Assembly (NCBI GenBank): GCA_041484665.1
Contig: JBGPIA010000014.1
Location: 59,309 to 123,308, forward strand
Reading direction: 5' to 3'
DNA length: 64,000 nucleotides
From: Candidatus Krumholzibacteriia bacterium
GTDB lineage: Bacteria; Krumholzibacteriota; Krumholzibacteriia; JAJRXK01
Within the stretch, counting starts at the first letter, position 1. Every line of letters starts with the position of its first letter. Positions 13,991 through 38,748 of the stretch are shown piece after piece. The notes beneath the pieces are model-generated. The model had not been told where the DNA came from. It made no database searches and saw nothing but the letters and a program-made list of their open reading frames with translations. Both the position numbers and the translations under genes were made by a program.

Positions 13991-14067
13991 TGAAGTCCTC
14001 CTGTTCTTGGGTTGTCCCGACTTCTCGACGAAGCCTGCGTTCCCTGCGCCTCCCGCAGGGCCAGGGG

Positions 14068-16536: not shown

Positions 16537-16559
16537 GGCTCTCCTTCGGGTCTCTCGAC

Positions 16560-19500: not shown

Positions 19501-20939
19501 CCGGTGAGCACATCGAGCGCCCCCTGCCCGTTGCCGCCCACGATGCGGCCCGTGAAGGTCCGGTCGCGCGGCACGATCCGCAGCCCGTTGCTCAGGAAAT
19601 GGATCTGGTGGTTGTTGTAGCCGGCCACGTGCACGTCATCGTCGAGGATCACGGCGTGCACCCCGTTGGGGAGGAAGTCATCGCCAGGCCAGTCTTGCAC
19701 CCCCGCGCTGGGATATCGCGCCGGATCCAGCCAGGTGCGCTCCGGGATCCAAGCGGTGTGCGGCACGTAGCCGTAGCGATACGCCACCATGTCCGACTCG
19801 GTGTGCACGGACCAGCTGTTCATCGCATCGGTCACGAAGGGCATGATGTGCTGGGCGTACGCGCTGGTGAGCATGGCGACCCACCCCGCCTGCACGCCGG
19901 TGGCGAGCCAGGCATTGAAGCCGATGGGACTGCCGTTGTTGGCGTCCCACTGCGCGGCCGTGATCAAGGGGCCCGACAGGTGGAAGTTGCCCGGAACACC
20001 GGTGGTCTGGTGGATGCGGAGCGTCTCATCGAAGCCGCTGCCCTGTGGGTCATCGGCGCGCCCGAAGAACACGTCGGTAGAGGCGAGCCCCTGGTTGCCG
20101 TGGTGGGCGAACGCGCAGTGCGCCTCGCTGACCGCGGTTCGCGGGTACGTCCCGGCGATCTCGTCGATGACAGGATCCGCAGGCGGTGGCGCGGTGTCAC
20201 TGTGCAGCGGCAGCGGGGCCGCGGCGGCGAGCGATTGCACCCGGATCCGCAGCGGCTCCGTGGCGCTCGCTTTTGCCACCTCGCGCAGGAGGGTACCGTC
20301 GCCGGGTACCAGCATCAGGAGCACCTCGCCCGCAACGGCGGTTGCGCCGACGACGGCCGACGGGCTCACGCCGCCCGACACGCCGTGGTCAGGTCCTGCG
20401 GCCGCGGCCAGATCCACGATCCCGCCGGCGTCGAGGGCGCGCCGGGGCTCGAGCTCGCGCAGGAACAGGACCGTCCCCCGGGCGTCGGTCATGCCCAGCC
20501 GCAGACGGCCACCTTCGCGCCAGAAGCGCTGGCTTTGCATCGACGGCCCGCCGGTCATGTCCACGCGCACCAGGATGTCGCCACCCTCCAGGGGGCGGAC
20601 CCAGAGGCTCAGCAGATCTGCGCCCGCGTCACCCCGCGCGTCGGTCGCGGCATCAACAGCGATCAGATCGGGGGGCCTCAACTGGGGCAATCCGACGGCG
20701 GCGGTCGCTGCCCGGCCGGTGGGCGGGAGCGGCACGAGCGTCAGGACGGCCAGCAGGCCCAGGCAGGCCAGGAAACCACGCCGGATCAGCGGGCCCGGCC
20801 GGGTGCGTGTGCCGGAGCGGGTCGGGAGGTCGCGCCGGGCCGGCAGGCCGTTCCAAATCGGGCATTGGAGACCGCTGCGCGAGTCCCCTGAGCAGGGGCG
20901 GCGATGGGAGCGCGACGCAGCATGGCTCATGCGGCGCAT
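16560..20939 (-). CDS. Secreted GH57-family glycoside hydrolase (amylase/4-alpha-glucanotransferase-like) with accessory domains and FlgD-Ig/T9SS-like CTD; start uncertain
   Basis: GH57 motifs HHGNQ, HLSGPL, TSAYAQHIMP, WIPERTW (nucleophile Glu), AEDWE (acid/base Asp); DLDEDGYDEVVLHN C-terminal domain; PNPFNP..RKITLAK. Confidence 0.8.
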   Translation of the reverse strand: MRRMSHAASRSHRRPCSGDSRSGLQCPIWNGLPARRDLPTRSGTRTRPGPLIRRGFLACLGLLAVLTLVPLPPTGRAATAAVGLPQLRPPDLIAVDAATDARGDAGADLLSLWVRPLEGGDILVRVDMTGGPSMQSQRFWREGGRLRLGMTDARGTVLFLRELEPRRALDAGGIVDLAAAAGPDHGVSGGVSPSAVVGATAVAGEVLLMLVPGDGTLLREVAKASATEPLRIRVQSLAAAAPLPLHSDTAPPPADPVIDEIAGTYPRTAVSEAHCAFAHHGNQGLASTDVFFGRADDPQGSGFDETLRIHQTTGVPGNFHLSGPLITAAQWDANNGSPIGFNAWLATGVQAGWVAMLTSAYAQHIMPFVTDAMNSWSVHTESDMVAYRYGYVPHTAWIPERTWLDPARYPSAGVQDWPGDDFLPNGVHAVILDDDVHVAGYNNHQIHFLSNGLRIVPRDRTFTGRIVGGNGQGALDVLTGLANSGVGQYRIAVYAEDWEAAAEMGSWATATPQAKETYDWFINKVASEAWIHVWRLDDALDNPDFNGATIPQLTLGCYQEIGGTAGYGGGNNGWYTHWAGFVPYVTGGNGSGACAGTAGNCRNYGALWTAAVNKLLSVPSNNLSESGWYVLMTNLHETAWHDGFGGPISGWEHTYSAKTKNALVYAEAARWAAGLYGNPTGAFVADLDEDGYDEVVLHNERIFACFEGIGGRAVNIFAKGTGYEFSAVGVDNAYWYGTEADYNDGNHVGAFSDVGPNTQHDPYAWTIDSAAGSTVAVTFRHPGGLQKTFTLDTGQPYIRATYRTAAQTTYIQTGMSPDLLDLIWRAQMDRVWTPDRAYMGRRNPNTGATVAYVLGTAGADHQREFSGQIMKGDEIVGSGAFEFYLYAGQTSAPVGGEIAQLRALAGALVDVLGPRPESAVYLPGTDRLRVTFDQGAAPGGLVPGGFAVDGNGDGVPEVVLGAGTTVVETTPALTLSLQLTPAEAAALEALNHAALRLLVSAGSVRDAGGVAGPARTIGLSYGAATAVAIDGHVEAAQWQRPCNKVFLDPPGDSIWTASNELDGVYARWDATYLYLAIDGTASSNSWILYLDTDPGGPNGQSDLSAIDAWERGAHFLQASFKPDFEYGCYQHQGQYDSDSFFRIVSASATVNLSAQILSAFDSQHVYAGGGGSEIAIPWEVLYGLGPGHVPPGAQIGFVASLCWDPDPDGQLGGDVLPNAIAATLPNVDNHLSFVVDGDGDGLPDLEDMAGPLLLSATVQSTGGSPYRVLLAFNEAVDAGSATQPANYTIFDTQVPASTIAVTAAQSGPAPALVLLETQAVPAAGRYSLLASNVRDVSCNANAMTPNQMVAIADPVTAVPALAAGHAVLLPNVPNPFNPATSIRFFVPPHDAAARVHLTLHDLRGRLVTLLLDGVPVGIGEHRMTWAGTDQSGAAVASGEYVVRLQIGETILTRKITLAK

Positions 20940-21062: not shown

Positions 21063-21884
21063 CTACCCCTTGACCCCTCCCAACGTGAGGCCTCCCACCA
21101 GGAACCGGCTCAGCAGCAGGAACAGGACGACGACCGGAACGGCCACCAGCAACGATCCCGCCGCGTAGTTGGCCCACTCGGTCTGGAAGGTGCTCGCCAG
21201 GCTCTCCAGGCCCAGCGGCAGGGTGTAGATGTCCCGGCTCACGATCAGCACGCGAGCGACGATGAACTCGGCCCACCCCGCCATGAAGCTGAACAGGGCT
21301 GTGATCACCAGCGCCGGCGCCGACAGTGGCAGCGTGACGCGGCGGAAGGCCTGCAGCTCGTTCATGCCGTCGATGAGGGCGGCCTCCTCCAGCGAGCGCG
21401 GGATCGTGTCGTAGTAGCCCTTCATGGTCCAGATGCAGAATGGCAGGGCCGTGGCCGTGTAGGCCAAGACCACCCCGCCGAGCGTGTTCACCAAGCCGAC
21501 CTTGCGCATGAGCAGATACAACGGGAGTAGCAGCATGGTGGCGGGGAACATCTGCGTCATGAGCACCGCGAACAGCCAGGCTCCCTTGCCCGGCAGGCGG
21601 AAGCGGCTCAGCGCGTAGGCCGCGGTCGAGGCCAGCGACACACCTAGGAGCGCCGTGGCCAGGGCCACCAGCAGGCTGTTGCGCATCCACAACAGGAAGG
21701 GCCTCTGCAGCAGCATGACCCGATAGGCGGCGAAGGTGGCTCCGCGCGGGATCGGGTCGAGGCTCGTCGTGTAGAGCGTATCGCTGGGGCGCAGGCTGAT
21801 CGTGAAGATCTGCATGACCGGGTAGACCGTCACCAGGCACAGCACGACACTCAGCACGTGCCAACGCAATGCGCGCAGGGACAT
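21063..21884 (-). CDS. malG: Maltose/maltodextrin ABC transporter permease (MalG-like)
   Basis: TM helices; KGYYDTIPRSLEEAALIDG EAA loop; GGLTLGGVKG C-terminus. Confidence 0.92.
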   Translation of the reverse strand: MSLRALRWHVLSVVLCLVTVYPVMQIFTISLRPSDTLYTTSLDPIPRGATFAAYRVMLLQRPFLLWMRNSLLVALATALLGVSLASTAAYALSRFRLPGKGAWLFAVLMTQMFPATMLLLPLYLLMRKVGLVNTLGGVVLAYTATALPFCIWTMKGYYDTIPRSLEEAALIDGMNELQAFRRVTLPLSAPALVITALFSFMAGWAEFIVARVLIVSRDIYTLPLGLESLASTFQTEWANYAAGSLLVAVPVVVLFLLLSRFLVGGLTLGGVKG

Positions 21885-21893
21885 GGCGACCTC

Positions 21894-22766
21894 CTACGCC
21901 CAGGTGGGCCGCTGGCTCCGCCGATAGCTCACCCAGGTCAGCCCCATCAAGATGAAGAAGATCAGGACGCTGAACGCCGCGGCGTAGCCGTAGCGGTAGT
22001 AGTTGAAGGCGGCCTTGTACACGTACGTTACCAGGATGTGGGTCTTGTCCCCCGGCTCTCCCTGGTTGGTCACCAGCCAGATGACATTGAGATTGTTGAA
22101 CGTCCAGATCGTGCCCAGGATCACGGCGGGCAGGAGCACGGGCCGCAGCAGCGGCAGCGTGATCGTGCGCAGTCTCCACCAGCGGCCGGCCCCGTCGAGC
22201 TCGGCAGCCTCGTAGAGCTCCTGGGGGATGCTCTGGAGCCCGCCCAGCGCCACGACCATCATGAACGGGAAGCCCAGCCAGATGTTGGTGATGGTGGGCG
22301 CCAGAAAGGCCGCCACCTCGTTGCCGAACCAGGGCACCGCCGGCACCCCCAGCTTGCCCAGCAGCAGGTTCACCGCGCCGTAGCGGTAGTTGAACATCCC
22401 GCGCCAGCTCAGCGCCGCGATGTACTGCGGAAGCGCCCACGGCAGGATCAGCAGTGCGCGGTAGATGCCACGCCCCCGGTACGGCTTGTTTAGGAGCAGC
22501 GCCAGCGTCACGCCGATCGTCACATGGAAGAACACGTTGACGGCGGTCCAAACGACCGTGCGCAGCAGGTAGTTCCACAGCTCTGGCTCGCGGAAGATGC
22601 GTGCGTACTGGCGCAGGCCGACGAACGAGGCGCCGTCCTTGATGGTGTACAGGCCCAGGTTCGTGAAGCTCAGTCCGATGTTATATGCGAACGGCCACGC
22701 CACGACGGCCACCAGCACCAACAGCGCGGGCAAGAGGAACAGCAGCGCCGTGCGGTTGCGCGTCAC
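21894..22766 (-). CDS. malF: Maltose/maltodextrin ABC transporter permease (MalF-like)
   Basis: GTG overlapping the malE stop; NIWLGFPFMM..LQSIPQELYEAAELDGA; TFNNLN; YGYAAA. Confidence 0.92.
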   Translation of the reverse strand: MTRNRTALLFLLPALLVLVAVVAWPFAYNIGLSFTNLGLYTIKDGASFVGLRQYARIFREPELWNYLLRTVVWTAVNVFFHVTIGVTLALLLNKPYRGRGIYRALLILPWALPQYIAALSWRGMFNYRYGAVNLLLGKLGVPAVPWFGNEVAAFLAPTITNIWLGFPFMMVVALGGLQSIPQELYEAAELDGAGRWWRLRTITLPLLRPVLLPAVILGTIWTFNNLNVIWLVTNQGEPGDKTHILVTYVYKAAFNYYRYGYAAAFSVLIFFILMGLTWVSYRRSQRPTWA

Positions 22767-24028
22767 AGGCGCAGCTCCTCGATCTTGCGCACGGCCTGCG
22801 CTTGCATCCAGGCCGGAGCCTGCTGTGGGCTCATGGCGCCGCCGAGCACCTGCTGGTAGGCGGTACGCATCACGTCCCAGATCACCCGCATCTCCGGCAC
22901 GATGGGCATGGGCCGGCCGCGCCGCAGCTGCTCCCAGCTGGTGTGCAGCATCGCGTTGCCGGCGATGTCGGGCCAGGCGGCCACGTCGATGCGGCTGGGC
23001 AGAGCGCCGAGGCTGCGCGACACCTCGGCTACCTTGCGCGCCGAGGTCAGGAATGTCAGCAGCTCCAGCACCAGCGCGCGGCGCGCGGGCGGCACGTGCA
23101 CGCTCATGGAGTAGCCCAGCGCCGCCGTCATGGGCGTGGGATAGAGGCCGCTCTGCGAGATGCGCGGCAGGACGGCCAGGCCGACGTCGATGCCCGCGTC
23201 GCGGTAGCTCTGCCACGACCACGGGCCATTGACCGCATAGGCAGCGGCGCCCTGCTTGAACAGGGTGTCCATGAGCGGGTAGTCGCAGTTGGGCGGGATG
23301 ACGCCGCTCTGCGCGATCGACCGCATGAACTCCAGCGCTTGCGTTTGCGCGGGCGTGTCCAGCGTCGGTCGGCCCTGCTCGTCCATGACCCACCCGCCGA
23401 AGCCCCCCAGCCACGGCACCAGCCAGAACGGCTCGGTGAGGTTCATCACGATGCCGTAACGATCGATGCGCCCGTCGCCGTCGAGGTCGCGCGTGAGCTC
23501 CTTCGCCTGGCGCAGCCAGAGGTCGGTGTCCGTGGCCGGCTCGTGCACCAGGGCCTTGTTGTAGACCAGCGTCAGGTGGTTGCCCACCTGGTCGGCCAGG
23601 GCGTAGACGTGTCCCGAAAGGCCCGGCCGCGCGGCCTCTACGAACAGCTTAAGCGTGTCGGGATCGACCAGGCCCTCCAGCGGCAAAATGAGGCCCATGA
23701 TGCTGAAGGGCCCCACCTGATCCGAGGGGCCGTACACGAGGTCGGGGCCCGCTCCGGCGAGGCCCGCCGTCTGGAATTGCGTGCGCAGCTTGTCGGTCTC
23801 GAAGTGGTTGGTCTCGACGGTGACGCCCGGGTGCAGGCGCTCGAACTCCGTGAGCTGGCGCGCGAGCACGGCCTGCTGCGCGGGATCCATCTGCTCCCAG
23901 AGACTGAGGCGGGTGGCGGCATCGGGCCGGGGAGCGCAAGCGACCGCGCACAGGACCAATCCCGCAACGGCCGCCGCCGCCAGCAGCGCGGCCGGGTTCC
24001 GCTGTGGGAAGCCACCCGGCCGGGTCAT
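22763..24028 (-). CDS. malE: Maltodextrin-binding lipoprotein of the ABC transporter (MalE-like)
   Basis: Lipobox AVAC; GPDL, LVYNKAL, NGPW, PMPIVPEMRVIW motifs. Confidence 0.9.
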   Translation of the reverse strand: MTRPGGFPQRNPAALLAAAAVAGLVLCAVACAPRPDAATRLSLWEQMDPAQQAVLARQLTEFERLHPGVTVETNHFETDKLRTQFQTAGLAGAGPDLVYGPSDQVGPFSIMGLILPLEGLVDPDTLKLFVEAARPGLSGHVYALADQVGNHLTLVYNKALVHEPATDTDLWLRQAKELTRDLDGDGRIDRYGIVMNLTEPFWLVPWLGGFGGWVMDEQGRPTLDTPAQTQALEFMRSIAQSGVIPPNCDYPLMDTLFKQGAAAYAVNGPWSWQSYRDAGIDVGLAVLPRISQSGLYPTPMTAALGYSMSVHVPPARRALVLELLTFLTSARKVAEVSRSLGALPSRIDVAAWPDIAGNAMLHTSWEQLRRGRPMPIVPEMRVIWDVMRTAYQQVLGGAMSPQQAPAWMQAQAVRKIEELRL

Positions 24029-24774
24029 TGGCTCACATGGACGATGGAGTTCGTTCCACCTTGCCCGTCGTCGGCGCTTTCGGGGTTGTCCGGGTCGGTG
24101 AGCCAGACATCATCGACCACGAATTTGTACCCGTAGTCGCCCGCCGACAGCGAGACCGTGGCGCGCCAGACTCCCAAGGCGTCCAGCGTCATGGCCTGCG
24201 CTTTGGGATCCCAGAGGGCGAAGTCGCCAGTGACGTAGACCTGCTTGGCTTGCGCGTGTCCGCCCAGCGTGAACTCGTGGGGGATGGTACGCTGGCTGCG
24301 TGATCCGGTGTCCAGCGAGCGGGAGATGTAGCTCTCCGAGTACGCGTACTTGACGTTGGAAGGCACCACGAGCACCGAGTTGAGCCCACCGAAATGGTCG
24401 TCGGTGGTCTCGGGGTTCCCCGGATCGTGCTGCCAATCCACCTGGTCGACCACAAACTTGTACTGATAGCGCCCCGGTGGCAGCGGCAAGGTGATCTCCC
24501 AGATGCCGTCGCCGTCGAGGTCCTTCATTCCGTCGATGTTGGGGTCGAGGCGGCCTCCGTTGGCGGTGCCCAGCCAGTTGTTGAACTCGCCGGCGAGGTT
24601 GATCTGGCGTGCGGCGGGGGCCTTGTAGCGGAACCGCATCCCGTTGCGGGTGGGCTCCGGCGGCGGCAGGCGGTCCTCGATGAACCCGAGGAGCGAGCAG
24701 CCCCCCAGCAGCAGCAGGCCCGCCAGCGAGAGCGCGCAAGCGAATCGCCGGCCTTGGACGTCGCCGCGTCTCAG
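24025..24774 (-). CDS. Lipoprotein with two CBM48/AMPK-beta-type glycogen-binding domains; start uncertain (CTG24774 or TTG24915)
   Basis: Lipobox LLGGC; LAGEFNNW..DGDGIWEITLPLPPGRYQYKFVVD..DPGNP and a second VTGDF..W..GDYGYKFVVD..DPDNP. Confidence 0.82.
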   Translation of the reverse strand: MRRGDVQGRRFACALSLAGLLLLGGCSLLGFIEDRLPPPEPTRNGMRFRYKAPAARQINLAGEFNNWLGTANGGRLDPNIDGMKDLDGDGIWEITLPLPPGRYQYKFVVDQVDWQHDPGNPETTDDHFGGLNSVLVVPSNVKYAYSESYISRSLDTGSRSQRTIPHEFTLGGHAQAKQVYVTGDFALWDPKAQAMTLDALGVWRATVSLSAGDYGYKFVVDDVWLTDPDNPESADDGQGGTNSIVHVSQ

Positions 24775-27056
24775 AACGTCACCACCGCGTTGAAGACCAC
24801 CTGGCGGCGGTCCGTGAGCGCCTGCTCTGCCCTCAGCACGTTGACCGGGTTGTAGGGGTCCAACCGCAGATCGAACAGATAGCCGTCGCGGAACTGCTGG
24901 CGCCCGTTCGGCCAACCCTCGGGCGAGATGACCTTGTAGAAGGTCGGGTCCACGCCGTAGCCCACGTGCAGCTGCACGGCGTTGGCCGGCCGGTAGACGA
25001 ATGCCGCAAAGGCCGAGAAGAAGTTCCGGTCCAGATCCAGCACCTGGCCGTTGGCGTCCAAAAGGTCGCCTTTGCCAGCGTATCGGATGTAGCGCAGATC
25101 GAACCGCAACGCCAGGTCCTTACCCCGCAGGCGTCCGCCGGTGGGGACCAGCCCACTCAGGGTCCACTCCGTGCTGTTGAGCCGCAGCAGCTCACCGTTG
25201 CCCTGGCCCGGCACGGGCGAGACCACGGCTGCCGCGCCCGTCGTGGTGAACTGCAGCGGGTCAGCAGTGCGCAGGAACTGCGACTCCAGCGTGATGTGCT
25301 GGTCGGCAGCGGCGAATGGCCGCCAGTGCAGCTGGGGGCTGGTTCGCCAGGTCCAGCGATCCAACGTAGCGGGGCCGCTGCCGAGCAGGCTCGTGTAGTC
25401 GAGGTTTTCGCGGTCGCGCTCGTAGCCCAGCAGTGCCTCCCACTGCCCCACCCGGTACGCGAGGTCCAGCCGCGAAACGTGCTCTTGACGCTGCGGGCGG
25501 GGACCCAACCTCAAGATATCCAGGGCGTCCGTGCCGTTGACATCCTGGTAGCTGGTCACCGCGGCCGCGTCGACGTAGTAGTCGCGGTCGGACAGCATGC
25601 TGCCGGGGACGGTGCGATACACGACGAAATTCTCACCGGCATCCATCCCCTGGTTCCAGCGGACCTCGTGGCTCACAACGGTCGTCAGGCCCTTCCACTC
25701 GTGGTCGAGCAGGAGCTTGCCGCGGTAGCCGCGCTCGTTGCCGATGGGGATGTCGACCTTACCGTTGACGAAGCCGTTGCCTTGGACCTTCTCCCGATTG
25801 CCCAGGTCCCAGCGCGCCGCATACCAGACGTAGCCGAGCGCGGCTCGAGCGTTCAGATGCGCAATGCGTGGAACCGGACTGGTCACATCCACGGCGACAG
25901 TGTGGCGGTCGTTGGCCAGCTCGAAGTTGTCGGATTTGTCTTGGTCCCGGCGCTGGCTCGCGGCCCGGAAGGCCACCAGATCCGCTGGATACGAGTTCAC
26001 CGAGCTGGTGAAGTTCACCCACCAGTCGCTGAACTCCCCCCGGTAGGTGAGGCCAACCGCGCGCGCGCCCAGCGGGCGTGTCCAGCGCAGCCCGACCACG
26101 TCGGTGCCGGTGTTTTGATTGAGTCCCTCCTTGCGCGGCACGAGCACCGTCGGAGCGCTGGGATTGAAGATGTCCTCGTCATAGGTGTCGGCGTACAGCA
26201 GCGCCAGGTTGCTCCCCCAGGGCGTGGCGCGCAGGACGACCCCCTGCGTCCCCTGACCGAACGGCCGCTGCTCGCGCCCGATGGTCCCGCGCAGGTCCTG
26301 GTGGCCCAGCAGCTCGAAGGGGTCCCCGCTGTCGAACGCCTCCTCGTTGTAGAAGGCCTGCGCCTGGAAGTGGTCGTCGATGAAGTTGCTCTGGGCCTTG
26401 TACAGGTCGGTGGCCAGCTCGTTGGCGCCCCCCTCGCCGGTCTTCAACTGCAAGCGCACGGTCCCCCACAACCTGGGGCTGAGGTTCGCCGTGACGTCGA
26501 GGTTGAACTGGTCGTCGGGGCGCTCCAGCCGCAGGCGCGCGTCACCGTTGTCGTCGCTGGTGCTCTGCATCAGCATGCGAAAGAAGCCGCCCAGGTAAAC
26601 GCGGTTGTGCAGCGGCGTGTTCGAGACCACCGGCGTGCCCGATGGGATCGCCGGCACTGCAGCCGCCGACCCTTCCCGCGCGAGCTTGAGATCGGCGCCG
26701 ACTTTGACCAACGAGTTGCCGTACTCACCACCGGTCAGCGGGTTGTCGGGGTCGGCCACCCAGGTACCGCCGTTGACGACGAACTTGTATTCGTAGCTAC
26801 CGGCCGCGAGCTTGACCACGACCGTCCAGGTCCCGTCGCCGTCCTGGTCGGACATGGATGAGGCGGTGGTGTTCCAGTCGTTGAAGCTGCCTGCCAGGCT
26901 CACCGACGTGGCTCCCGGATCCGTATAGCTGAAGAGGACTCCGCCCTCGCCGTCGGCCACCGCCGCGCGGGCGGCCGGCGCGCACGGAAGCAGCAGGGGC
27001 AGCGCCAGCAGCAGCGACAAGGTCTGCGTCCAGCGAATCCGGCGCGTGACGATCAT
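24771..27056 (-). CDS. CBM48 domain fused to a putative outer-membrane beta-barrel
   Basis: SD plus signal peptide; LAGSFNDW..DGDGTW..YEYKFVVNGG..DPDNP; amphipathic beta-strands and C-terminal Phe (VVFNAVVTF). Confidence 0.75.
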   Translation of the reverse strand: MIVTRRIRWTQTLSLLLALPLLLPCAPAARAAVADGEGGVLFSYTDPGATSVSLAGSFNDWNTTASSMSDQDGDGTWTVVVKLAAGSYEYKFVVNGGTWVADPDNPLTGGEYGNSLVKVGADLKLAREGSAAAVPAIPSGTPVVSNTPLHNRVYLGGFFRMLMQSTSDDNGDARLRLERPDDQFNLDVTANLSPRLWGTVRLQLKTGEGGANELATDLYKAQSNFIDDHFQAQAFYNEEAFDSGDPFELLGHQDLRGTIGREQRPFGQGTQGVVLRATPWGSNLALLYADTYDEDIFNPSAPTVLVPRKEGLNQNTGTDVVGLRWTRPLGARAVGLTYRGEFSDWWVNFTSSVNSYPADLVAFRAASQRRDQDKSDNFELANDRHTVAVDVTSPVPRIAHLNARAALGYVWYAARWDLGNREKVQGNGFVNGKVDIPIGNERGYRGKLLLDHEWKGLTTVVSHEVRWNQGMDAGENFVVYRTVPGSMLSDRDYYVDAAAVTSYQDVNGTDALDILRLGPRPQRQEHVSRLDLAYRVGQWEALLGYERDRENLDYTSLLGSGPATLDRWTWRTSPQLHWRPFAAADQHITLESQFLRTADPLQFTTTGAAAVVSPVPGQGNGELLRLNSTEWTLSGLVPTGGRLRGKDLALRFDLRYIRYAGKGDLLDANGQVLDLDRNFFSAFAAFVYRPANAVQLHVGYGVDPTFYKVISPEGWPNGRQQFRDGYLFDLRLDPYNPVNVLRAEQALTDRRQVVFNAVVTF

Positions 27057-27072
27057 CTCCTCTGCTCCTTCC

Positions 27073-28710
27073 CTAGAACCACATCTTCATGAAAAGCTGG
27101 ACGCGACGCTCCGAGTTCTGGTCGACGGCGCTGGGGTCTTCGCTGATGAACGAGTCGTTCTCCGTGAGCCGGTCGGACCGGCCGCCGTCGCCGTACTCCA
27201 GGAAGAACTCGGCGTTGGCCCAGGCCTCGTAGCGCGTCTGCACGAAGATCGTGCGCCGCGACTCGGTGTTCTCATCGGCGTTGAGAAAGCGCGTGAAGAA
27301 TTTCCAGCGCGAGGTAACGTTGAGATTGATGTCCGTGCCAAAGCCGCGGACCGCCCGCGGAGTCCCGAGGTCGCGGACGCGGACCTGTGGCCGGACCGAG
27401 ATCAGCTTGTTCTGGGCCCGCAGCTCGAAGATCAGGTTCTTGAAGACACTGCCGGCGCCGGCCACCTCGTTGCCCTCGAAGCGGCGCCACTTCACCCAGC
27501 CCGAGAAGCCTCCCTTGATCTCCGCATAGACTTCCAGCTCGTGCTGGTTCTGGTCGAAGCGCTGGCCGTCCGCGCCGATCTCCCGCAGGGCCCGGGTGCG
27601 CCAGTGGGCGTAGCGCAGGTTCAACTGCTTACGGGGCACGCGCCACCAGCTCTCCAGCCAATAGCCGCGCCGGTCGTCATCCCCCTGCTTGCTGCTCATT
27701 CCGGTATAGAAGGAGGGCTCGCGGTACCAGAGCTGCCCCTTGAGCGTCAGGTCGCGGAATCGCACGTCGCGCAGCTCCATCTGGATCCCGTTACGCAGCT
27801 TGTCCTGATCGCTGAGCCAGCCGGAGAAGTTGCGCCCCGCCTCCAGCACCAGGGTCGTCCGACCAAACCGCTGCAACGGCGCGATCAACTCGCCCAGGGC
27901 CACCTCGGCGTCCAGTGCGGCAGTCAGGTCGAAGTTTTCGGGGCGGCTGCCGTAGTCCTTGCGGCCGAAGGTTCCCCCCAGGGAGATGCGGTCCTGGCGC
28001 AGACTCATGTGGGCGCGCCCGGCCTCGAAGTCATCGCCGCTGGTGGCCTTGTCGCCATAGTAGAGGAGTCCGCCGAAGCCCTGCACGTCGTGGAAGTCGA
28101 GGCGCGCTCCCTGGGCGCGCGGACCGAAGGAGTCGTCCTGCAGGGTGTTGCCGTCGACGATCTGCAGCAGCGGCTGGCTGAACCAGAACCGGTTCTGCGA
28201 GCTGAATGCCACCAGCTCGGCCTTGGGTCGGGTCAGGCGCACATGCCCTTGTTTGAAGAAGACCTTGGGGTCGTGTACCGAGATGGCGTCGAGCTGCGTC
28301 TGGGTCGCGGGGTCGATGCCGGGGCTGATGCTGCGGAAACGGTTGGAGGACGCGCTGATTTCCACGAAGCCCTCGGCGCTGGGCCACGGCGCCGCGAGCG
28401 CCCGCAGCTCGAGGTAGTGATTGGGCATGTCCAGCTGCCAGGTCGCGTCCTCACGGGTGCCGCGCAGAAACGCCTCGTAGTAGGCGTGCAGCTGGGTGTC
28501 GGCGCGCGCCGCCCTCGGCAGGGACGCCAGCGCTACCGTGAGCAGGGCACTCAGGAGCCACGCTGCCGGCCAGGCAAGATCACGCGCGGAAACCGGGCAA
28601 CCCATCGGGGCACATCCGGCGAGGGAGGCCGGGCAGCCCGCCTTGGCCCGCCGGGTGCGCAGAGCCGGGCAGCGCAGGGGTGCGCGTCGCGTGCGCGTGC
28701 GTGTGGCCAT
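27073..28710 (-). CDS. Putative outer-membrane beta-barrel protein of unknown family; start 28710 or 28605
   Basis: Signal peptide ending ARA; alternating aromatic/hydrophobic strands; C-terminal VQLFMKMWF barrel signal. Confidence 0.72.
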   Translation of the reverse strand: MATRTRTRRAPLRCPALRTRRAKAGCPASLAGCAPMGCPVSARDLAWPAAWLLSALLTVALASLPRAARADTQLHAYYEAFLRGTREDATWQLDMPNHYLELRALAAPWPSAEGFVEISASSNRFRSISPGIDPATQTQLDAISVHDPKVFFKQGHVRLTRPKAELVAFSSQNRFWFSQPLLQIVDGNTLQDDSFGPRAQGARLDFHDVQGFGGLLYYGDKATSGDDFEAGRAHMSLRQDRISLGGTFGRKDYGSRPENFDLTAALDAEVALGELIAPLQRFGRTTLVLEAGRNFSGWLSDQDKLRNGIQMELRDVRFRDLTLKGQLWYREPSFYTGMSSKQGDDDRRGYWLESWWRVPRKQLNLRYAHWRTRALREIGADGQRFDQNQHELEVYAEIKGGFSGWVKWRRFEGNEVAGAGSVFKNLIFELRAQNKLISVRPQVRVRDLGTPRAVRGFGTDINLNVTSRWKFFTRFLNADENTESRRTIFVQTRYEAWANAEFFLEYGDGGRSDRLTENDSFISEDPSAVDQNSERRVQLFMKMWF

Positions 28711-28714: not shown

Positions 28715-29731
28715 TCAGAATCCGATCGTGATGGTGGCGCGGTAGGTATTACCCAGCCGCTCGTGCGTCATCAGCCCCACGTCGGTGCGCACCTTCTTCA
28801 CCAGCAATCCCGCTCCCGCGGTGAGAGCGCCGTCATCGACCCCGGCGCGAACGGCCACCACGTTGTTGAACCACGACTCGGCGCCGACGTGAAGCGTCCA
28901 CGCCTGGTCCACGTACTCGGGGATGTCGTTGTGGCGCAGCTCACCGCTGATACGCACCACCTTCTGCAGCAGGTAGGTAGCGCCCAGGCGGCGGCGGCCG
29001 CCGATCTGGGTCGCGCGCGCCGTGGTGGAGATCAGGCGGATTTCCGGCCGCACCAGATTCTCGGCGCTCGCGCCCAGGTCGAAGTTGTCCAGCACGTGCA
29101 CGACGACGCCCGTGCTGAACGACAGCTTCCACTGCGCGCCGAGGTAGTTGGGATCGTTGAGCGCCTCGTATCCGGGGGCGGCCACCCCGTAGAACAGCAC
29201 GGATCCGCCCACCACCAGTCGCCCGCGCAGCAGCGCAAGCGCCGCTGCCGCGGTGAGCAGGTCCTCGTGATAGACATCCTTCAGTCCTGTGCGCGACCAG
29301 CCCGCCCCCACCGCCAACCCCTTGCGCGCCTGGAACGTCGCGCCCAGGAAGTCCTCGCTCAGCCCGTCGACGCCGTCGTAGACGGAGGTGCGCATGCCCG
29401 AAAGCTGCACGCGCTGCGGGGCGATGATCGCCGCCGGGTTCCAGAAGAGGCTGGCCGGATCGCCCGTCACCGCCACGAACGCTCCGCCCATGGACAGGGC
29501 GCGCGCGCCGACTTGCGGGTCGACGAAATCGGCCTGCGCGATGCCGGCGGCGCCACACAGCGCCACCGCCAGCGCCGCGGCCAGCGCCGGCGCCAGCGCC
29601 GTTGCCACCTCCGACGCCACCGCCTGCGCCAGCGCCGCAGTCCGCCCCGCCGCCTGCGCGGCGATGCCCGTGCAAGGCGCCCGTCTCCTCGCCGTCCTGA
29701 AGGGCCGCCAAGCCTGGGCTGCGCGCCTCAC
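28715..29731 (-). CDS. PorV/PorP-like (FadL-fold) outer-membrane barrel
   Basis: VGARALSMGGAFVAVTGDPASLFWNPAA signature; C-terminal HERLGNTYRATITIGF. Confidence 0.82.
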   Translation of the reverse strand: MRRAAQAWRPFRTARRRAPCTGIAAQAAGRTAALAQAVASEVATALAPALAAALAVALCGAAGIAQADFVDPQVGARALSMGGAFVAVTGDPASLFWNPAAIIAPQRVQLSGMRTSVYDGVDGLSEDFLGATFQARKGLAVGAGWSRTGLKDVYHEDLLTAAAALALLRGRLVVGGSVLFYGVAAPGYEALNDPNYLGAQWKLSFSTGVVVHVLDNFDLGASAENLVRPEIRLISTTARATQIGGRRRLGATYLLQKVVRISGELRHNDIPEYVDQAWTLHVGAESWFNNVVAVRAGVDDGALTAGAGLLVKKVRTDVGLMTHERLGNTYRATITIGF

Positions 29732-32700
29732 CGCACCACCGCCACGGCCTTCGATTGACGCTCCCAGCGGTCGATCTGTGACCCACGCACCTGAACGCGA
29801 ACGATGTAGATGCCGGTGGGCACCTCATGGCCGAGCTCGTCCTTGCCGTCCCACTGCAGTCCCAGCGTGCGATTGGTGGTGGCTTCGCCCTGGAACAGCA
29901 GCAGCGTGCGCACGCGCGCGCCGCGCAGGTCGTAGACCTCCACGATCGCCTCCCGCGTCTCTTGGGGAAGCACGTAGCTGACGCTCAGCAGGTCGTGGAG
30001 GCCGTCGCCATTGGGCGAGAACGGGTTGGGCGAGAGCTGCAATCCCGTCACGATCGCGTCGGCGTCGACCTGCGAGCTCTTCGTAAACGTCCCGTACAGG
30101 CCCAGTTCACGCACGCGGGCCGTGACGGTGCTGCCCCCCCGCTCGCCGTGCCCGCCGGCGAGCACCCAGCGCCCGGCGCGCTCGGTCCAATGGAACAGTT
30201 GCAGGTCCGCGGGCGGGTCGCCGCCCGCGTCGTAGCGCGGAAAGTGCAACGAGAGCTCTGCTACCTGGGGCAGCACGCTGATCTCGGTCATGGTGCTGTC
30301 GCCAGCCACGGCACGCAGCGTCAAACGCCGTGCCGTGCCCAGGAAGCGGTTGCCCGCCGTCAGGACCGTCTCGTTGTTGTCGCCGCGCGGCGTGAGGTCG
30401 AGGGTACCGTGCGCCGCCGCCTCGTAGGTCAGCTCCAGACGCCCCCCATTGCCAGCGGGCAGCACGCCACGCAGGATTGCGGCGTCCACCCGCAGGCGCG
30501 ATCCCTCGGGGAGATCGAGGGAGTAGGTGTCGACGCCCTGCAGCAGCGCGCGATCGATGGGATAGGTGAGCGAGTCCACGGGTTGGACCGGAAGCTCGAG
30601 CAGGAACTCCTGGCGCGCCGCGGGGTCCGTGCGGTTTCCCACGAGGTCCTGGGCGTCGAAGCTCACCACGAGGTAGCGCACGCTCTGCGTCGACCCGTCG
30701 GGCAGGGTGCGCTGCACGAGGTTGGTCACGCCCTGGCCGACGATATCGTCCCAGCGGATGTCGGCCACCCAGATCACGCCCTTCTCCAGGTCGCTGCGCA
30801 GATGCCCCAGCGGGACGGTCCGCTCGTTGCCGCGCGATTCGCCCAGGCCGCGCCACAGCAGGTTCGCCCAGTCCACGCCGGTCTCGTCCTCCACCGTGGC
30901 CAGCACCGCGATGGGCCCGTCGCGCAGGATCGGCCAGCTGGTCAGGGCGCGCCCCACCGAGCGCAGGAAGGTCACCTTGGGCGGAGCGGTGTCGATGAGT
31001 TGCTGCGCCTCCAGGCGTACGGCCACCTGCCCGTCCTGAAAGCGCCGCTGAGCATCCGCCGTGAGGAAGTCCAGCTGCTCCTGCTGCGCGCGCCCCGGGT
31101 GCTTGCCGGTACCGGCGTGCGCGAGGACATCGACAATGTTCGGGTCGCGCTCGCGGCCGGAATCTCCGTTCTTGCCGCCGCCGAACTGCCACTCGGCGAT
31201 CCCTTCGTTGACCCAGCGCACGGCGCCCCAATTGTCGTCGTTGCTGTCGCCGTCGTGCCCGCTGAGGGTGACGATGGTATCCCACCGGCGCACTGCGGCA
31301 TTAACCGTGGCGCTGTCCGCGCTGGCAGACAGACCCAGCTTGTCTTTGCGGACGAAAATGTCGATCGTGTTCGCGTCGGAGCTGGCGCAGAAGAAGAGTG
31401 TCTCGTCGTTGCGGTCCACGACCCAGCTCCCCGACGACGATGAGCCGTTGCTGCTCACCAGCCCCTTCCACCAGCCGTCGGCCACCAGGGCATACTCCCA
31501 GGCATCCTGCGGCGCCACGTCGGCCCAGCGGTTCTGCGGCAGCTTGGTCGAGCCGCCGTCCTTGCTGTCGACGAGCACGATGACGTTCTGGAGGTTGAGA
31601 TCGACGCGCGAGCCCGCCGGGCAGTTGGCGTCGCGCGGATAGACGGCCTTCCAGTCCGCCGCGCCTGGCTCTGACGGATCGGTGAGGTCGCGCAGCGTGA
31701 CGCGGAAGAGCAGGTCCTGATCCAGATCAAAGATCTCGAGTTTCTTCAGGTCGAACACGCCGTCGAAGAACACACCCGAGGTCGGGTATTGGTAGTAGAG
31801 GTACTGGCGGCCCTGCTGATCGGGCCCGTGGTCGTCGCGCAGCGAGTCCTGCACCGCCAGGATCGGAACGAGCTCCGGCTGGCCGGTGATGGTGAGCTTG
31901 GCGCGGGCGCGGGCTCGCGCCCCGCTGCTGAGCTCCAGCGCTGAGATCACCGCCTCTGGTTCCCCGGCGAAGGTGCTGCGCGATACCGACCAACGCAGGC
32001 TGTACAGCCCGTCGCCCGCCGCTGCATCGCCCTCCAGCCCGTCGTCGCGCAACGGCACGACCTGCTCCCCACCCAGGGCGCTGAGGTCCGCGAAGACCTG
32101 AAAGCTGGGCGAGGGCGGCGGCTGGGCTCTGAACACGGGCCGCGCCGTGAGTAGTGCAGTCTCGCCTTGCGTCACCTGCGGCGGGGTGAAGCCCACATCA
32201 TCCAGAGCCAGCGAGCTGATCGTCTCCACCAGCACTGTCCCGCCCCAGTTGTGCAGCGTGACCGATGCCGGCAGCTGCTGGCACCAGTCGACCCCTGGCA
32301 GCAGCGGGACCATGTCGGCGGTGGCATCGTCGGGGCTGGAGTCCAGCGCCGGCCGCTTGCAGGTCTCCTCCTGCGTCACGTACACCTGCAACCGCACGCT
32401 ATCCTGGCCCACGACGAACGCCGACCCAAACAGCGATACCGGGACCCGGAAGGTGACGTCACGATCGGTCTTGCGGACCCAGCTCGCCTTGCGGGCGTCG
32501 ACCCCGTCGGCAAAGGTCGTGACCCAGGTGCGCGTGCCGACGTCGTACCACTCCCAACCGTTGGGGTCGCCACCGGGCGGCGGCCGGCGGAAATCGGCGT
32601 AGTTATCCGCCTGGTACTTATAGGTGAAGACGTAGTCGGGCAGCAGCGGGTGGGCGTAGCTCACCGGGAAGCCGAAATAGTCCGTCACCGCGCCCGCGAC

Positions 32701-35364
32701 GTCCCCTTGGTACTCCAGCAGCAGGACCATGTGGATACCGCTGTAGTTCGAGAAGAAGGGGACCTTCACGACCATGGTGTCGCGCTCGGAGTAGGCGAAT
32801 ACCGTCGTGAGATCCACCTGCGCGACGGCGTTGTGCGCGTCGTCGCTCTCGGGCGCGAGCTCGCTGGCCGCCGCCAGCCCCGGGCTGATCTCCAGTCGCA
32901 GCTCAGCCGAAGGCTGTGGCAGGGAAGCCAGCGTGGCGGTCACCTCCACCAGTCCGAAGGCCTGCGGGCGCGTGGCCACCTCGAAGCTGGCCGTCCCATC
33001 AGCGGCCAACGCCACCGTGGCAGGGAAGGACTGGATGATCGCCGCCGGCCCCGCGGCAATTGTCACCTGCGCTCCGGCCACGGGGCTGGCGTTGCCGAAT
33101 GCGTCCTCTGCGCGCAGGGTGAACTGCATCCGCCCCAGAGCCGCCACGCGCCCCCCCAGGCTCAGCCGCCGCGGGGTGTCCGGGGCAACGATGAAGACGA
33201 GTGGCTCGCTGAAGATGCTGTCGCTGGGCACGGCGAAGGCGCGCAGCGTGAACGTGTCGGCGACGGTGGAGGTGAAGGCCACGTTCCCCTCGCTGCCGAA
33301 CGAGCCGTCGCTCTGCGTGGTGGCCGTCGAGGGCGCCACCTGCGCGCCCGCAGGATCGATCCGGAAGCCGATGTCCAGATCGGGCAGACGCACGTTGTTG
33401 TTGCTCACGTCCTTGAGCTGACCCTGCAGGCGCAAGCTGCCGCCAGCGACCATGCGCGTTCCCTCGGCGGTGAGCGCGATCGAGCTGGGCTGCACGGGCA
33501 GCACGCCGGTCTCCAGGATCGCCGCGGCCGCCGTCGGATGGGTGGCACGCAAGCGGACCACCTCTTGGCGGTCGTCGGTGAACAGCAGCGTCGCCCGCGC
33601 GGTGGGTGGATCCCCCGTAGCGGGATTCCAGCGCGCGGGGTCCAGCAGCGGCTGGGCGCTGGCCGCCGTGTCGGGCAGCGTCCAGTACGTCACCGCCCCT
33701 TCGGGTGCGATGCTGGGGTCCATCGTGGTGGCCGTGAGGGTGACGCTCCCTTTGACCGCATCATCCAGGATCGCCTCGAAGCCGTCGTCGTCCACGAAGC
33801 CCACCTGCAGCGGCAGATACGCGTAGAAGTGAACGCTGGGGATGCTCACGGTGGTGAAGGCCGCGCTGATGGGTTGGGTGGGCCCGCTGCTCGTGCTGGT
33901 GCCCAGCGGATAGAATGCCAGCCGTGTCGCGCGCACGATGCGCAGGTCCAAAGTGCCCAGGTCGGTCACGCTGTCGTTGGCAACCACCACGTCCTGCTGA
34001 ATCGGTTTGTAGCCCGTGAGCAGGCCGATGCGCGGGTCGTCGGAGAATGGGCCGGCCAACAGCCGGTAGCTGCCGTCGGACACAGGGCGCAGGCTGACCA
34101 CTAGCGGCGCGCTGGGGGGGACGGTCGCCTCGGCGATCACCTCATTCTGCGTGACGTCCGCCGGGAGGAGCACGACGTCGAGCGTAAACGTACGCTGCGT
34201 GGCCTGTGGGCCGTCGGCGAAGCGGAACGCCACGTCCACACCGCCGTTCACCTTGAGTGCCAGAAAGTCGATGCCCGCGACCTCGGCCCCCTCGGCCACG
34301 GCCACGCCGGCGTGCAATGGAGCCAGGTAGAACCGGCTGTCGATCTTCACCGTGTAGGTTCCCGCGGCCAGCCGCGAGAGGAGGTAGGGGCCGCCGCCGG
34401 GCGGGGTCTTCACCCGCGCGACCTCGACGGTCCCGTCGCGCAGCGCGACCACGTTGATCTGCGTGGTGGTGTCCAGCGGGTCGGAGAGCGTCAGCGTGCC
34501 GCGGATGCGACCGTTGGGCGGCCAGCCCAGGTCGGGGACGCCATCGCCGTCGGCATCGACGGTGAAGACCAGCGGCGCATCGATCACGCGGTCGGTGGAC
34601 TGATCGGGCATCGATTCGGGCGAGAGGGAGTCGCCGCCGCCGACCTGCGCCACCACCACGGCGATGCGCGTGCCGGGGGGCACCTGCGCCGCGGCGTTCG
34701 GATAGAGGACGTTCCACGGGATGAACAGCTCGTAGCCCGTGTTGCCCGCCAGGTCCTTGGCCTGCGTGATCGCGTTGACCCGGTTGACCGGGCTGTTGGG
34801 ATCGGCGAGATCGAGAAAGCCCAGGTCGTAGCGGCCGGCCCAGTTGGTGAACCCGAAGTCGCACCCGAAGCCCGAGCCGACGGTCAGCGGCCGCCAGAGA
34901 TTGCGGCTGATGGCGCCCAGCGCGTTCTGGTTGATGAGGCTCAGATCGGCGATGCCCGTGCGTTTGCCGTAGTCCACGTCGATGTACAGATTGACGCTGT
35001 TCTGCCCGGATTGGCCTGCTGGCACGTCCCACAGGGCGCCGCTGACGGCGAGGTAGATCCCGCCGGGGTCCCAGGTGACCCGCAGACCCTGGAGATCGTT
35101 GAAAGGCCCCCACGCGCTGTCGCCCACGGGGTCCTCGTAGAAGAGCTCGTCGGCATCCCAGTCGGCGGCGTCGACCTGTGCCACTCCGTCCACGTTCGGG
35201 GAATTGTAGGTCGTCGCCCGCGCGGGCTCCGCCCTCAGCGCCGCACACGTCAGCAGGGCCAGCAACCAGAGCCGCGCCAGAAGCGGCGGCAGAGATGGGA
35301 GCAAAGGTTGCGGCAGCGGTAGCGCCGGCGGCTGGTACGGCCGGCGGCGCTGCGCGACACCCAT
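29728..35364 (-). CDS. Very large surface protein with glucodextranase-type DOMON domains, Ig-like repeats and a type-B-like (PNxFSPNGDG) sorting domain
   Basis: ATG overlapping the upstream TGA; signal peptide; DDHGP..YQYPT..FFDGVFDL, LNLQN, APQDAWEYAL, WQFGGG..DPNIVDVL; SPNPFSPNGDGLHD..WDGKD..PTGIY..KAVAVVR. Confidence 0.8.
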   Translation of the reverse strand: MGVAQRRRPYQPPALPLPQPLLPSLPPLLARLWLLALLTCAALRAEPARATTYNSPNVDGVAQVDAADWDADELFYEDPVGDSAWGPFNDLQGLRVTWDPGGIYLAVSGALWDVPAGQSGQNSVNLYIDVDYGKRTGIADLSLINQNALGAISRNLWRPLTVGSGFGCDFGFTNWAGRYDLGFLDLADPNSPVNRVNAITQAKDLAGNTGYELFIPWNVLYPNAAAQVPPGTRIAVVVAQVGGGDSLSPESMPDQSTDRVIDAPLVFTVDADGDGVPDLGWPPNGRIRGTLTLSDPLDTTTQINVVALRDGTVEVARVKTPPGGGPYLLSRLAAGTYTVKIDSRFYLAPLHAGVAVAEGAEVAGIDFLALKVNGGVDVAFRFADGPQATQRTFTLDVVLLPADVTQNEVIAEATVPPSAPLVVSLRPVSDGSYRLLAGPFSDDPRIGLLTGYKPIQQDVVVANDSVTDLGTLDLRIVRATRLAFYPLGTSTSSGPTQPISAAFTTVSIPSVHFYAYLPLQVGFVDDDGFEAILDDAVKGSVTLTATTMDPSIAPEGAVTYWTLPDTAASAQPLLDPARWNPATGDPPTARATLLFTDDRQEVVRLRATHPTAAAAILETGVLPVQPSSIALTAEGTRMVAGGSLRLQGQLKDVSNNNVRLPDLDIGFRIDPAGAQVAPSTATTQSDGSFGSEGNVAFTSTVADTFTLRAFAVPSDSIFSEPLVFIVAPDTPRRLSLGGRVAALGRMQFTLRAEDAFGNASPVAGAQVTIAAGPAAIIQSFPATVALAADGTASFEVATRPQAFGLVEVTATLASLPQPSAELRLEISPGLAAASELAPESDDAHNAVAQVDLTTVFAYSERDTMVVKVPFFSNYSGIHMVLLLEYQGDVAGAVTDYFGFPVSYAHPLLPDYVFTYKYQADNYADFRRPPPGGDPNGWEWYDVGTRTWVTTFADGVDARKASWVRKTDRDVTFRVPVSLFGSAFVVGQDSVRLQVYVTQEETCKRPALDSSPDDATADMVPLLPGVDWCQQLPASVTLHNWGGTVLVETISSLALDDVGFTPPQVTQGETALLTARPVFRAQPPPSPSFQVFADLSALGGEQVVPLRDDGLEGDAAAGDGLYSLRWSVSRSTFAGEPEAVISALELSSGARARARAKLTITGQPELVPILAVQDSLRDDHGPDQQGRQYLYYQYPTSGVFFDGVFDLKKLEIFDLDQDLLFRVTLRDLTDPSEPGAADWKAVYPRDANCPAGSRVDLNLQNVIVLVDSKDGGSTKLPQNRWADVAPQDAWEYALVADGWWKGLVSSNGSSSSGSWVVDRNDETLFFCASSDANTIDIFVRKDKLGLSASADSATVNAAVRRWDTIVTLSGHDGDSNDDNWGAVRWVNEGIAEWQFGGGKNGDSGRERDPNIVDVLAHAGTGKHPGRAQQEQLDFLTADAQRRFQDGQVAVRLEAQQLIDTAPPKVTFLRSVGRALTSWPILRDGPIAVLATVEDETGVDWANLLWRGLGESRGNERTVPLGHLRSDLEKGVIWVADIRWDDIVGQGVTNLVQRTLPDGSTQSVRYLVVSFDAQDLVGNRTDPAARQEFLLELPVQPVDSLTYPIDRALLQGVDTYSLDLPEGSRLRVDAAILRGVLPAGNGGRLELTYEAAAHGTLDLTPRGDNNETVLTAGNRFLGTARRLTLRAVAGDSTMTEISVLPQVAELSLHFPRYDAGGDPPADLQLFHWTERAGRWVLAGGHGERGGSTVTARVRELGLYGTFTKSSQVDADAIVTGLQLSPNPFSPNGDGLHDLLSVSYVLPQETREAIVEVYDLRGARVRTLLLFQGEATTNRTLGLQWDGKDELGHEVPTGIYIVRVQVRGSQIDRWERQSKAVAVVR

Positions 35365-38300: not shown

Positions 38301-38537
38301 CCCCGGGGCGAGATCGATCGTCACTTCGAAAACGCCGTCCGCGTCGGCATCGGCCATGGCCTGGGCCGTGGCGTTCCAGGAGTTGAACTCCCCAGCGACG
38401 TAGACGGCTTTGGCAGGGACCGAGGGTTGGAAGCGAAACGTGACCTTGGCGGCCTGGGCCTCACGGGGGGGCCCCGCCAGCAGCGTCAGGAAAAGCAGGC
38501 CGGGAAGCCACGGAACGGCGAGAGAGCGAGCCTTCAA
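35364..38537 (-). CDS. Exported GH13 neopullulanase/cyclomaltodextrinase-like enzyme with three N-terminal CBM48 domains
   Basis: TTG start with GAGGAGG SD; signal ending AQA; three AG(E/T)FN.W..YKY/F repeats; YQIFPDRF, DMALNH, GFRLDVPNEV, GEIW, DSHD, DPDCRRTMPW. Confidence 0.92.
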   Translation of the reverse strand: MKARSLAVPWLPGLLFLTLLAGPPREAQAAKVTFRFQPSVPAKAVYVAGEFNSWNATAQAMADADADGVFEVTIDLAPGRYQYKYVIEGTTWQEDPYSTESVPDPYGGKNSVLVVPEGAATLSVGLSGAAKPLAATPAAVPPVAQPAVPVPSAAASASHRNVYFAMQAKGATAVFLAGEFNSWSATAQAMSDADGNGVFDVTIPLAPGHYQYKYVIDGTWKEDPRSAAYVADPYGGKNSIVEVSAGEGVQEAATSAGAQPAVGRAGAAATAGASGTTGAKPAAPAVAKPASSAALTGQRTVTFRYQPPISGVREIFLAGTFNDWNVGATPMRDQDGDGVWEAMLLLAPGDYEYKFVADGTWITDEKADAFVDDPYGGKNSVIHVDDRFKAIDVKVGDGKILVDNLGVTLGYSTVDEVEDGLLVFQARAYRDDVQKVVLHWMEEGKQPQEAVMMPGAKDAVFASWTAQAKLADARSPVRFTFSYHDKGTQRWATAGGGFAEQKPDPQQWIAYSEQLLPPFRIPQWAQTGIYYQIFPDRFGNGDPSNDQDFKQSYYKGRNELPAGGKTNAEYFHVVKDWDDVSGLAHSPYRTDGKPDYYSFYGGDVRGVIDHIPYLASLGITIIYFNPVNDARSNHRYDACDYLKLDPHLGTDAEFAEMTRRCAEAGIRVIVDMALNHTGDCHFAFQDAIAKWKDSPYYDWYEWQKRPPSWPLPSDAKASDYYDCWWGFGLHPNLNYDLSRPNAQENGIVDIAQAKVNSAVVDYVLQIPEYWMGKLGCSGFRLDVPNEVPFWFWGLFRERCRQIKPDHVLIGEIWGDAGAWINPHVFDAVMNYRYFKDPVVKWIGQRQGNAATFDQELAPGRTRYPIQAVRAQMNLVDSHDTVRLLNVAGGDVRRLMLAATFAMTYLGAPHIYYGDELGLAGDKDPDCRRTMPWSQIDVPARKQVLEHYRRVTALRRAHPELSLGAFQTVLASGDVFAYLREHQGRRLLVVLNNGESATTTILPVGNAGIADGATATPVLGVASEITPVGGTLTVGRGVLKIVAPPVSGIVLEIRSERS

Positions 38538-38737: not shown

Positions 38738-38748
38738 GTGGGCGGCGC

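Follow-up and report, generated by a model that had tools for sequence, protein, structure and literature searches.

A pair of paralogous, predicted plug-less outer-membrane barrels, one fused to CBM48, in a conserved cassette of a bacterial alpha-glucan locus

The window analysed here, a stretch of 64,000 nucleotides of DNA from a Candidatus Krumholzibacteriia bacterium, carries two adjacent genes, A and B, that encode an undescribed family of outer-membrane barrels set in a conserved cassette. In this locus the two are probably a new form of sugar channel, as far as sequence can tell, and the preferred reading, given a probability of about 0.6, is that they would provide the outer-membrane entry step for maltodextrin instead of LamB or SusC. 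They are larger than any channel in the 8-18-strand classification of diffusion channels in PMC4849052 yet are plug-less, so that their selectivity is a structural question. A survey of literature listings and abstract openings, with subscription papers and supplements outside its scope, found no description of the cassette, which is a candidate answer to how several uncultured diderm phyla move alpha-glucans across the outer membrane. The features of the locus, with positions counted in the window, are as follows.

24771..27056, minus strand: barrel A, 761 residues, comprising signal peptide, CBM48, low-confidence linker and predicted 22-strand beta-barrel
26694..26951, minus strand: CBM48 of A, approximately residues 36-121 (Pfam PF16561 E 2.3e-11, PF02922 E 4.2e-10)
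27073..28710, minus strand: barrel B, predicted 24-strand beta-barrel from residue 2, without plug domain
24025..24774, minus strand: lipoprotein with two CBM48 domains, lipobox Cys at about 24697-24699
28715..29731, minus strand: PorV/PorQ-like barrel (NF033709 E 5.6e-16), probable start about 29620
29728..35763, minus strand: large T9SS-type cargo (Pfam, NCBIfam), probable start about 35360
21063..24028, minus strand: MalE-, MalF- and MalG-like ABC transporter genes, directly downstream (SBP_bac_1/8, BPD_transp_1)
44437..45684, plus strand: MalK-like ATPase (ABC_tran, TOBE_2, OB_MalK)
35364..38801, minus strand: GH13 enzyme with three CBM48 domains and an apparent signal peptide, probable start about 38537
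38749..41046, minus strand: amylo-alpha-1,6-glucosidase (GDE_C, PF06202 E 9.7e-70)
41018..44227, plus strand: GH13 alpha-amylase with FlgD-type C-terminal domain (Pfam), predicted secreted
16560..20939, minus strand: FlgD-tailed protein (FlgD_ig) with GH57-like motifs at residues 280, 397 and 494
12836..17829, minus strand: Big_5/FlgD protein and two-CBM20 protein (Pfam), at the end of the locus

A and B are neighbours on the minus strand with a gap of 16 nt between them and, judged from their sequences, are real, conserved genes; the first homologue searches gave 22 relatives for A and 33 for B, and the B profile comprises 111 representatives. A codon model makes the ATG at 28605 a more probable start for B than 28710, comparison with homologues shows about 25-30 residues ahead of the mature start in its relatives, and mature B, from 28503, has 476 residues and is the barrel alone. 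The earlier note, made from the letters of the DNA, had both proteins ending in Phe and one of them fused to CBM48. The C-terminal residue is Phe in each, and the fused protein is A, whose domain is matched by both of the Pfam families listed above.

By its gene content the window holds a complete alpha-glucan/starch locus. The gene next to B scores 59 bits against NF033709, under the curated cut-off of 90, and on this match is a distant PorV/PorQ relative, termed PorV-like here. Ig-like, Glucodextran_C and FlgD/CHU_C C-terminal domains are recognised by Pfam and NCBIfam in the large cargo, and alignment shows that its N-terminal domain is common to the short cargos of other loci. The GH13 enzyme with three CBM48 domains has no C-terminal sorting domain and is predicted to be periplasmic. 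No GH57 match was found in Pfam for the protein at 16560..20939, the motifs of which we take to be those of GH57. Besides A and B no outer-membrane transporter was recognised in the locus; SusD had no match among the 16 locus proteins scanned, and no TonB/ExbBD-like gene was recognised among the window ORFs scanned. The genome from which the window comes has seven TonB-barrel matches, none of them on the window's contig, and has SprA, so T9SS-type tails are usable there. It also has about a dozen PorV-like paralogues besides that of the window, which suggests many cargo-specific anchors, and two further FlgD-tailed T9SS-type proteins are encoded in the window, one at 6822-11441 (plus strand) with a CARDB domain and, by eye, a metallopeptidase-like HExxH stretch, and another at 45905-46660 (minus strand).

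The barrel nature of both proteins, proposed in the earlier note, is borne out by monomer structure prediction with AlphaFold2. The model of A (mean pLDDT 75.8, pTM 0.66) has the CBM48, a disordered linker at about residues 122-151 that is of low confidence, and then 22 strands; that of B (mean pLDDT 85.8, pTM 0.76) has 24 transmembrane strands with longest loops of 26-29 residues, both counts being taken from DSSP lists of the models. Reference barrels of 16, 18 and 22 strands align to A as far as residues ~579, ~637 and ~761, and because they end at the corresponding strands of A, the count of 22 is favoured for it. In structural alignment porins of 16 and 18 strands run out at the 16th and 18th strand of either model, and it is TonB receptors that cover the full length of A and usher pores that of B. 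Hydrophobic and polar faces alternate in the strands of both, and outer-face hydrophobicity per strand gives a hint, too weak for use, of a protein-covered face near strand 4. The fold comparison that the earlier note had called for returned generic matches and no recognised porin family. A has no clear best match (Z about 12.5, top barrel 12.7). B comes closest to the pore of the PapC/FimD usher (Z 18 at rmsd 5.6-6.1, with usher rmsd spanning 3.9-6.1; 9-11% identity, 363-384 residues), with AlgE among its generic matches at Z 14.7; a close family missing from these match lists may still exist.

Sequence families tell the same story of novelty that the note had put forward. Pfam recognises CBM48 alone in A and nothing in B of the window, NCBIfam adds nothing further for either, and no Pfam family is common to the 71 B or the 51 A members examined. 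Among PDB sequences no relative was matched by the B and A profiles, one search giving an unrelated capsid match at E 0.069 and the other none at E up to 1. The note's remark that TonB plug motifs are missing also holds, as neither A nor B has a Pfam match to a TonB plug or TonB barrel family; a single one of the 51 A members has a sub-threshold PF00593 match (E 0.0088). By language-model features the named cluster nearest to both A and B is DUF6029 (PF19494; scores 0.94-0.95). That identity was not supported: Pfam gives no DUF6029 match for any of the 71 B and 51 A members, these genomes carry DUF6029 as a gene of its own, and its profile, a shallow one of 12 sequences (Neff 3.3), scores 2.4% and 0.1% against the two barrels.

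The note had further taken A and B to be homologous from three stretches aligned by eye. No paralogy is visible by pairwise BLASTP (E 0.24), and shallow profiles give a probability of 4%, with the shallow-profile search likewise blank. Deep profiles do detect it, at 97.4% (E 1.2e-11) in one comparison, the alignment of which pairs all three by-eye stretches, and at 98.2% (E 4.7e-14, 417 columns) in another. The alignment is strongest across strands 1-11. One reversed and 12 block-shuffled control profiles score 0.1-3.1%, and a PorV-like barrel profile scores 1.3% and 0.3% against the two barrels. Searched against other genomes, the B-family profile also picks up the neighbouring A gene over its N-terminal region (best E 2.7e-15). 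No other barrel of the window's own genome is matched by the A or B profile at E 0.01, so the likeness of A and B is not generic barrel similarity.

Comparison with known systems places A and B outside LamB, TonB-dependent receptors, ushers and the 8-18-strand channels to which known passive diffusion channels belong (PMC4849052). Like the window locus, LamB and ScrY with MalEFGK combine a barrel without a plug in the outer membrane with amylases and a MalE-type ABC importer; the models further suggest that strands 5 and 6 are joined in both A and B by a long conserved loop, placed like the constriction loop of porins. In contrast LamB and ScrY have 18 strands (PMC4849052) against the predicted 22 of A and 24 of B, and the window pair consists of two paralogues with a fused CBM48 and a dedicated lipoprotein. 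The fold match to LamB/ScrY is generic (Z 12-13, rmsd 7.2), with LamB aligning to the first 18 strands alone, and PF02264 (LamB) has no match in the window proteins, the 71 B members, the 51 A members or the window's genome, which is 93.65% complete. LamB and ScrY are trimers in which an aromatic slide conducts maltodextrin; conserved aromatics face the modelled lumen of B, for which sugar conduction is a prediction. The Bacteroides SusC/SusD/SusEFG system resembles the locus in that an outer-membrane transporter is clustered with surface glycan-binding proteins and amylases, and the 22 strands of SusC (PMC13543919) are matched by A, unlike B with 24. It differs in that A and B are without a plug domain or TonB-receptor family match, the N-terminal domain of A being CBM48, and in that T9SS-type cargos serve as the surface proteins of the window, an ABC transporter takes the inner step and SusD is unmatched. 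The PapC/FimD usher shares 24 strands and a full-length alignment with B, which however has no internal plug, periplasmic usher domains or sequence match, and no pilus genes were recognised in the locus. OprB, CymA, Occ and ChiP have 12-18 strands and families of their own; A and B differ from them in strand count and match none, the fold matches being generic with rmsd of about 5-10. T9SS type B cargo and cognate anchor genes are usually clustered (PMC10202324), and in the window a CHU_C/FlgD-tailed cargo likewise adjoins a PorV-family barrel, as with PorP/SprF-like anchors. Such a pair accounts only for the two genes upstream, A and B being unlike the PorV-like profile.

The recurring order in other genomes is PorV-like gene, B, CBM48-A and CBM48 lipoprotein. 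Sixty-eight non-duplicate loci with B were surveyed, 20 of them hand-picked from weak matches (four of these for a nearby CBM48) and with kin not independent. All 55 that have at least 2.4 kb downstream show B followed by A and a CBM48 protein, and in 50 of the 55 a PorV-like gene lies upstream of B. The conserved unit, beyond what the earlier note described, also takes in this barrel and a T9SS-type cargo. The remaining 13 of the 68 end too soon; in two of these 13 (L066:9461-10936 and L072:4285-5445) what comes after the B homologue is not A but a gene for a WD40 beta-propeller, a possible alternative partner. Named records among the relatives are from Krumholzibacteriota, Eisenbacteria, Cloacimonadota, Elusimicrobiota and Hydrothermia. 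Five distant metagenome loci (L074, L076, L078, L080 and L082) have MalEFG-like genes beside the cassette, and a further distant clade, represented by five loci, retains B, A and the lipoprotein with no PorV-like gene upstream and no MalEFG within 8 kb, where the sequence extends that far. An IS200-like transposase gene lies between B and A at L076:9568-10236, with an ORF of similar size there in L078. Two B homologues (P0093, its record named Elusimicrobiota, and P0106) are of ~690 residues and have an extra N-terminal domain of ~200 residues that is CsgG/TolB-like by eye, and in L064-L074 (a Hydrothermia-near clade, and L074) a protein of 460-500 residues with a cargo-type N-terminal domain follows the cassette.

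The trees of A and B are congruent (patristic r 0.85; 26 of 32 strong A splits are common to both). From gene order and this co-divergence, assembly of A with B as a heteromer, as the earlier note had it, is slightly favoured. For the homologous pair of L068, the predicted complex between B and the barrel part of A scored 0.09 (mark 0.32, controls not folded), a figure that speaks neither for nor against assembly.

Assignment of the domain of A to CBM48 rests on Pfam scores above cut-off together with retention of the Trp/Lys/Trp/Asn site, binding being predicted. The residues W61, K91, W99 and N114, presumably the equivalents of the AMPK-beta glycogen site, are present and at least 90% conserved among 22 homologues. 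As the domain precedes strand 1 of an even-stranded barrel it would face the periplasm, and to this extent the model agrees with the periplasm-facing glycogen-binding domain of the earlier note. The first CBM48 of the lipoprotein sits on a short tether and carries a cassette-specific inserted loop not seen in the other CBM48 domains compared; across the loci the lipoprotein nearly always shows a recognisable lipobox. Between the stop codon of A and the lipobox (window 24697-24774, minus strand) there is no ATG, GTG or TTG; starting at a CTG that overlaps the A stop would yield a signal peptide of 26 residues that looks normal, and a coupled start at this codon is therefore suggested. The lipoprotein also has a weak T9SS_plug match (E 0.00035), whose 19.7 bits fall short of the cut-off of 100 and which was set aside as fold-level noise.

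The starch connection is carried by the window's own subtype, defined by a B profile E < 1e-85 with family f3 set aside as a separate clade, and by the clade of the locus MalE, defined by E < 1e-110, both cut-offs having been picked after viewing score gaps. Among 151 genomes of the phylum, in which kin are not independent, the subtype occurs in 60 and the MalE clade in 59; 57 genomes have both, three the subtype alone, two MalE alone and 89 neither. It is because the subtype tracks the MalE clade (57/60) in this way, and because the genome has no LamB match, that the entry of maltodextrin is the interpretation preferred for this locus. Sugar channels already characterised are specific diffusion barrels that work together with an ABC uptake system (PMC4849052, PMC13543919). 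By analogy the system works like LamB with MalEFGK, with Sus-like capture at the surface. Starch or glycogen would be cut outside the cell by T9SS-secreted amylases, with the large cargo, anchored to the cell surface through its cognate PorV-like barrel, serving to concentrate the glucan. If A and B do conduct, fragments would pass inward through them without TonB and be handed off to CBM48 domains, that of A on the periplasmic side and those of the lipoprotein, before trimming by the signal-peptide GH13 and debranching enzymes and import by MalEFGK. The 22-24 strands exceed the size needed for maltodextrin, and this counts against the reading, as do the five-locus clade with no MalEFG nearby and the two loci in which a WD40 gene follows B. 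B combines short loops with a highly conserved lumen, which makes it probable that a partner or a bound sugar occupies part of the pore, and the obvious candidate is the lipoprotein CBM48.

For the family at large the picture is different. An A-type barrel is present in 110 of the 151 genomes, far above the MalE-clade count, and the sister cassettes, divergent clades in the tree, are near-universal in families f3, f4, f5, f7 and f8. Of 49 genomes with the divergent cassette alone, eight have any GH13 (E 1e-8 or better) and the MalE clade occurs in one. The single-contig genome G023 (96%) has no GH13, GH57, GT5, GDE_C or phosphorylase match, and its sole MalE-like match lies among AnmK, MurQ-like SIS and GH3 genes. 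In G047 and G041 there are GH57 and GT5 matches, so the loss of alpha-glucan genes is not uniform in the sister clade. Since sister cassettes occur in genomes without detectable alpha-glucan enzymes or a maltodextrin ABC transporter, the family is not solely a maltodextrin channel and has a second role in this clade. A maltodextrin role, as in the earlier note, is supported for this locus, with its full starch gene set, and falls as a family-wide description. Unrooted trees suggest that the starch role is probably the older, because starch-linked cassettes span several phyla and the starch-free clade is seen in one. Many lumen-facing aromatic and charged residues are conserved in starch-linked B, most of them less so in the sister clade, where alignments at about 15% identity may blur conservation.

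These sister cassettes are what gives substance to the first alternative, an unlikely one, in which A, B, the lipoprotein and the PorV-like barrel are not a sugar pore but an outer-membrane scaffold or display platform for placing T9SS cargo or large surface proteins with Ig repeats, and starch loci would merely be among its users. Besides being widespread in genomes mostly without GH13, they are flanked by large Big_1 proteins and not by sugar genes. In L044-L063, L089 and L090 there are two small CBM48 lipoproteins, a downstream Big_1/invasin-D3 repeat gene of 1,600 to over 3,100 residues and, upstream, a CDP-alcohol phosphatidyltransferase or DUF4388 gene and an S8 peptidase with a FlgD tail. 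In five aligned f4/f7 loci (L050, L056, L060, L089 and L090) the A CBM48 has lost one binding-site Trp, and the frequency of the PorV-like gene upstream of B would also suit a display role. Against a scaffold stand the gain and loss of the window subtype with MalE, the five loci that lack the PorV-like gene and the absence of a cargo gene upstream of it in L060, the intact CBM48 site of the second sister-clade lipoprotein, and the strong conservation of the B lumen in starch-linked clades. Anchoring barrels of the T9SS, moreover, already perform this task by themselves (PMC10202324).

A second alternative, less likely still, keeps uptake but makes the barrels gated importers, with the N-terminal CBM48 of A plugging the 22-strand barrel, a CBM48 of the lipoprotein plugging the 24-strand one, and opening by ligand or the pull of an energy transducer. 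The usher pore is closed by a beta-sandwich plug, and LptD too has a plug. A has the TonB-transporter layout of N-terminal globular domain and 22 strands, B is closest in fold to the 24-strand usher pore, the CBM48 domains of minimal cassettes number exactly two, one for each barrel, and the special conserved loop and short tether of the lipoprotein CBM48 would fit such a device. However, TonB plug and barrel families are unmatched apart from the one sub-threshold A member, TonB/ExbBD-like genes went unrecognised among the window ORFs scanned, the A model leaves the CBM48 unfixed relative to the barrel (linker pLDDT < 50 at the pTM above), and A of L082 has no CBM48. A broader and speculative proposal, itself rather unlikely, is that A and B form a two-barrel machine in which oversized pores are CBM48-plugged or gated without TonB and coupled to a T9SS-displayed glycan-binding protein; if true, it would be a third route of glycan uptake besides LamB-type porins and SusCD, common to several uncultured phyla and redeployed in the sister clade for a non-starch job.

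Export of alpha-glucan or another polymer, with the periplasmic CBM48 guiding it to the pore, is very improbable, for although exporters such as BcsC, PgaA and AlgE typically combine a barrel lacking a plug with glycan-binding parts in the periplasm, and AlgE is among the generic fold matches of B, the window neighbours are hydrolases and an importer, and G023 and G115 keep the cassette with no match to GT5 glycogen synthase.

CBM48 turns up in other unexpected settings in these genomes. At L086:7150-8283 and L087:7286-8359 it is the C-terminal part of a fusion with a ParA/MinD-type ATPase, the genomes concerned including G084, where there is no GH13 or GH57 match. At L088:8325-12015 it is present in an anti-sigma-like protein and, C-terminally, in a small barrel-like protein, in a cluster with an apparent ECF sigma factor, the CBM48 domains alone being confirmed. 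Proteins of ~900 residues with a C-terminal CBM48 are encoded at L091:5901-8591, L092:8353-11121 and, as a relative in the window's own genome, G000:C5:184381-187242; one of them has a weak MGH1-like glycoside hydrolase match.
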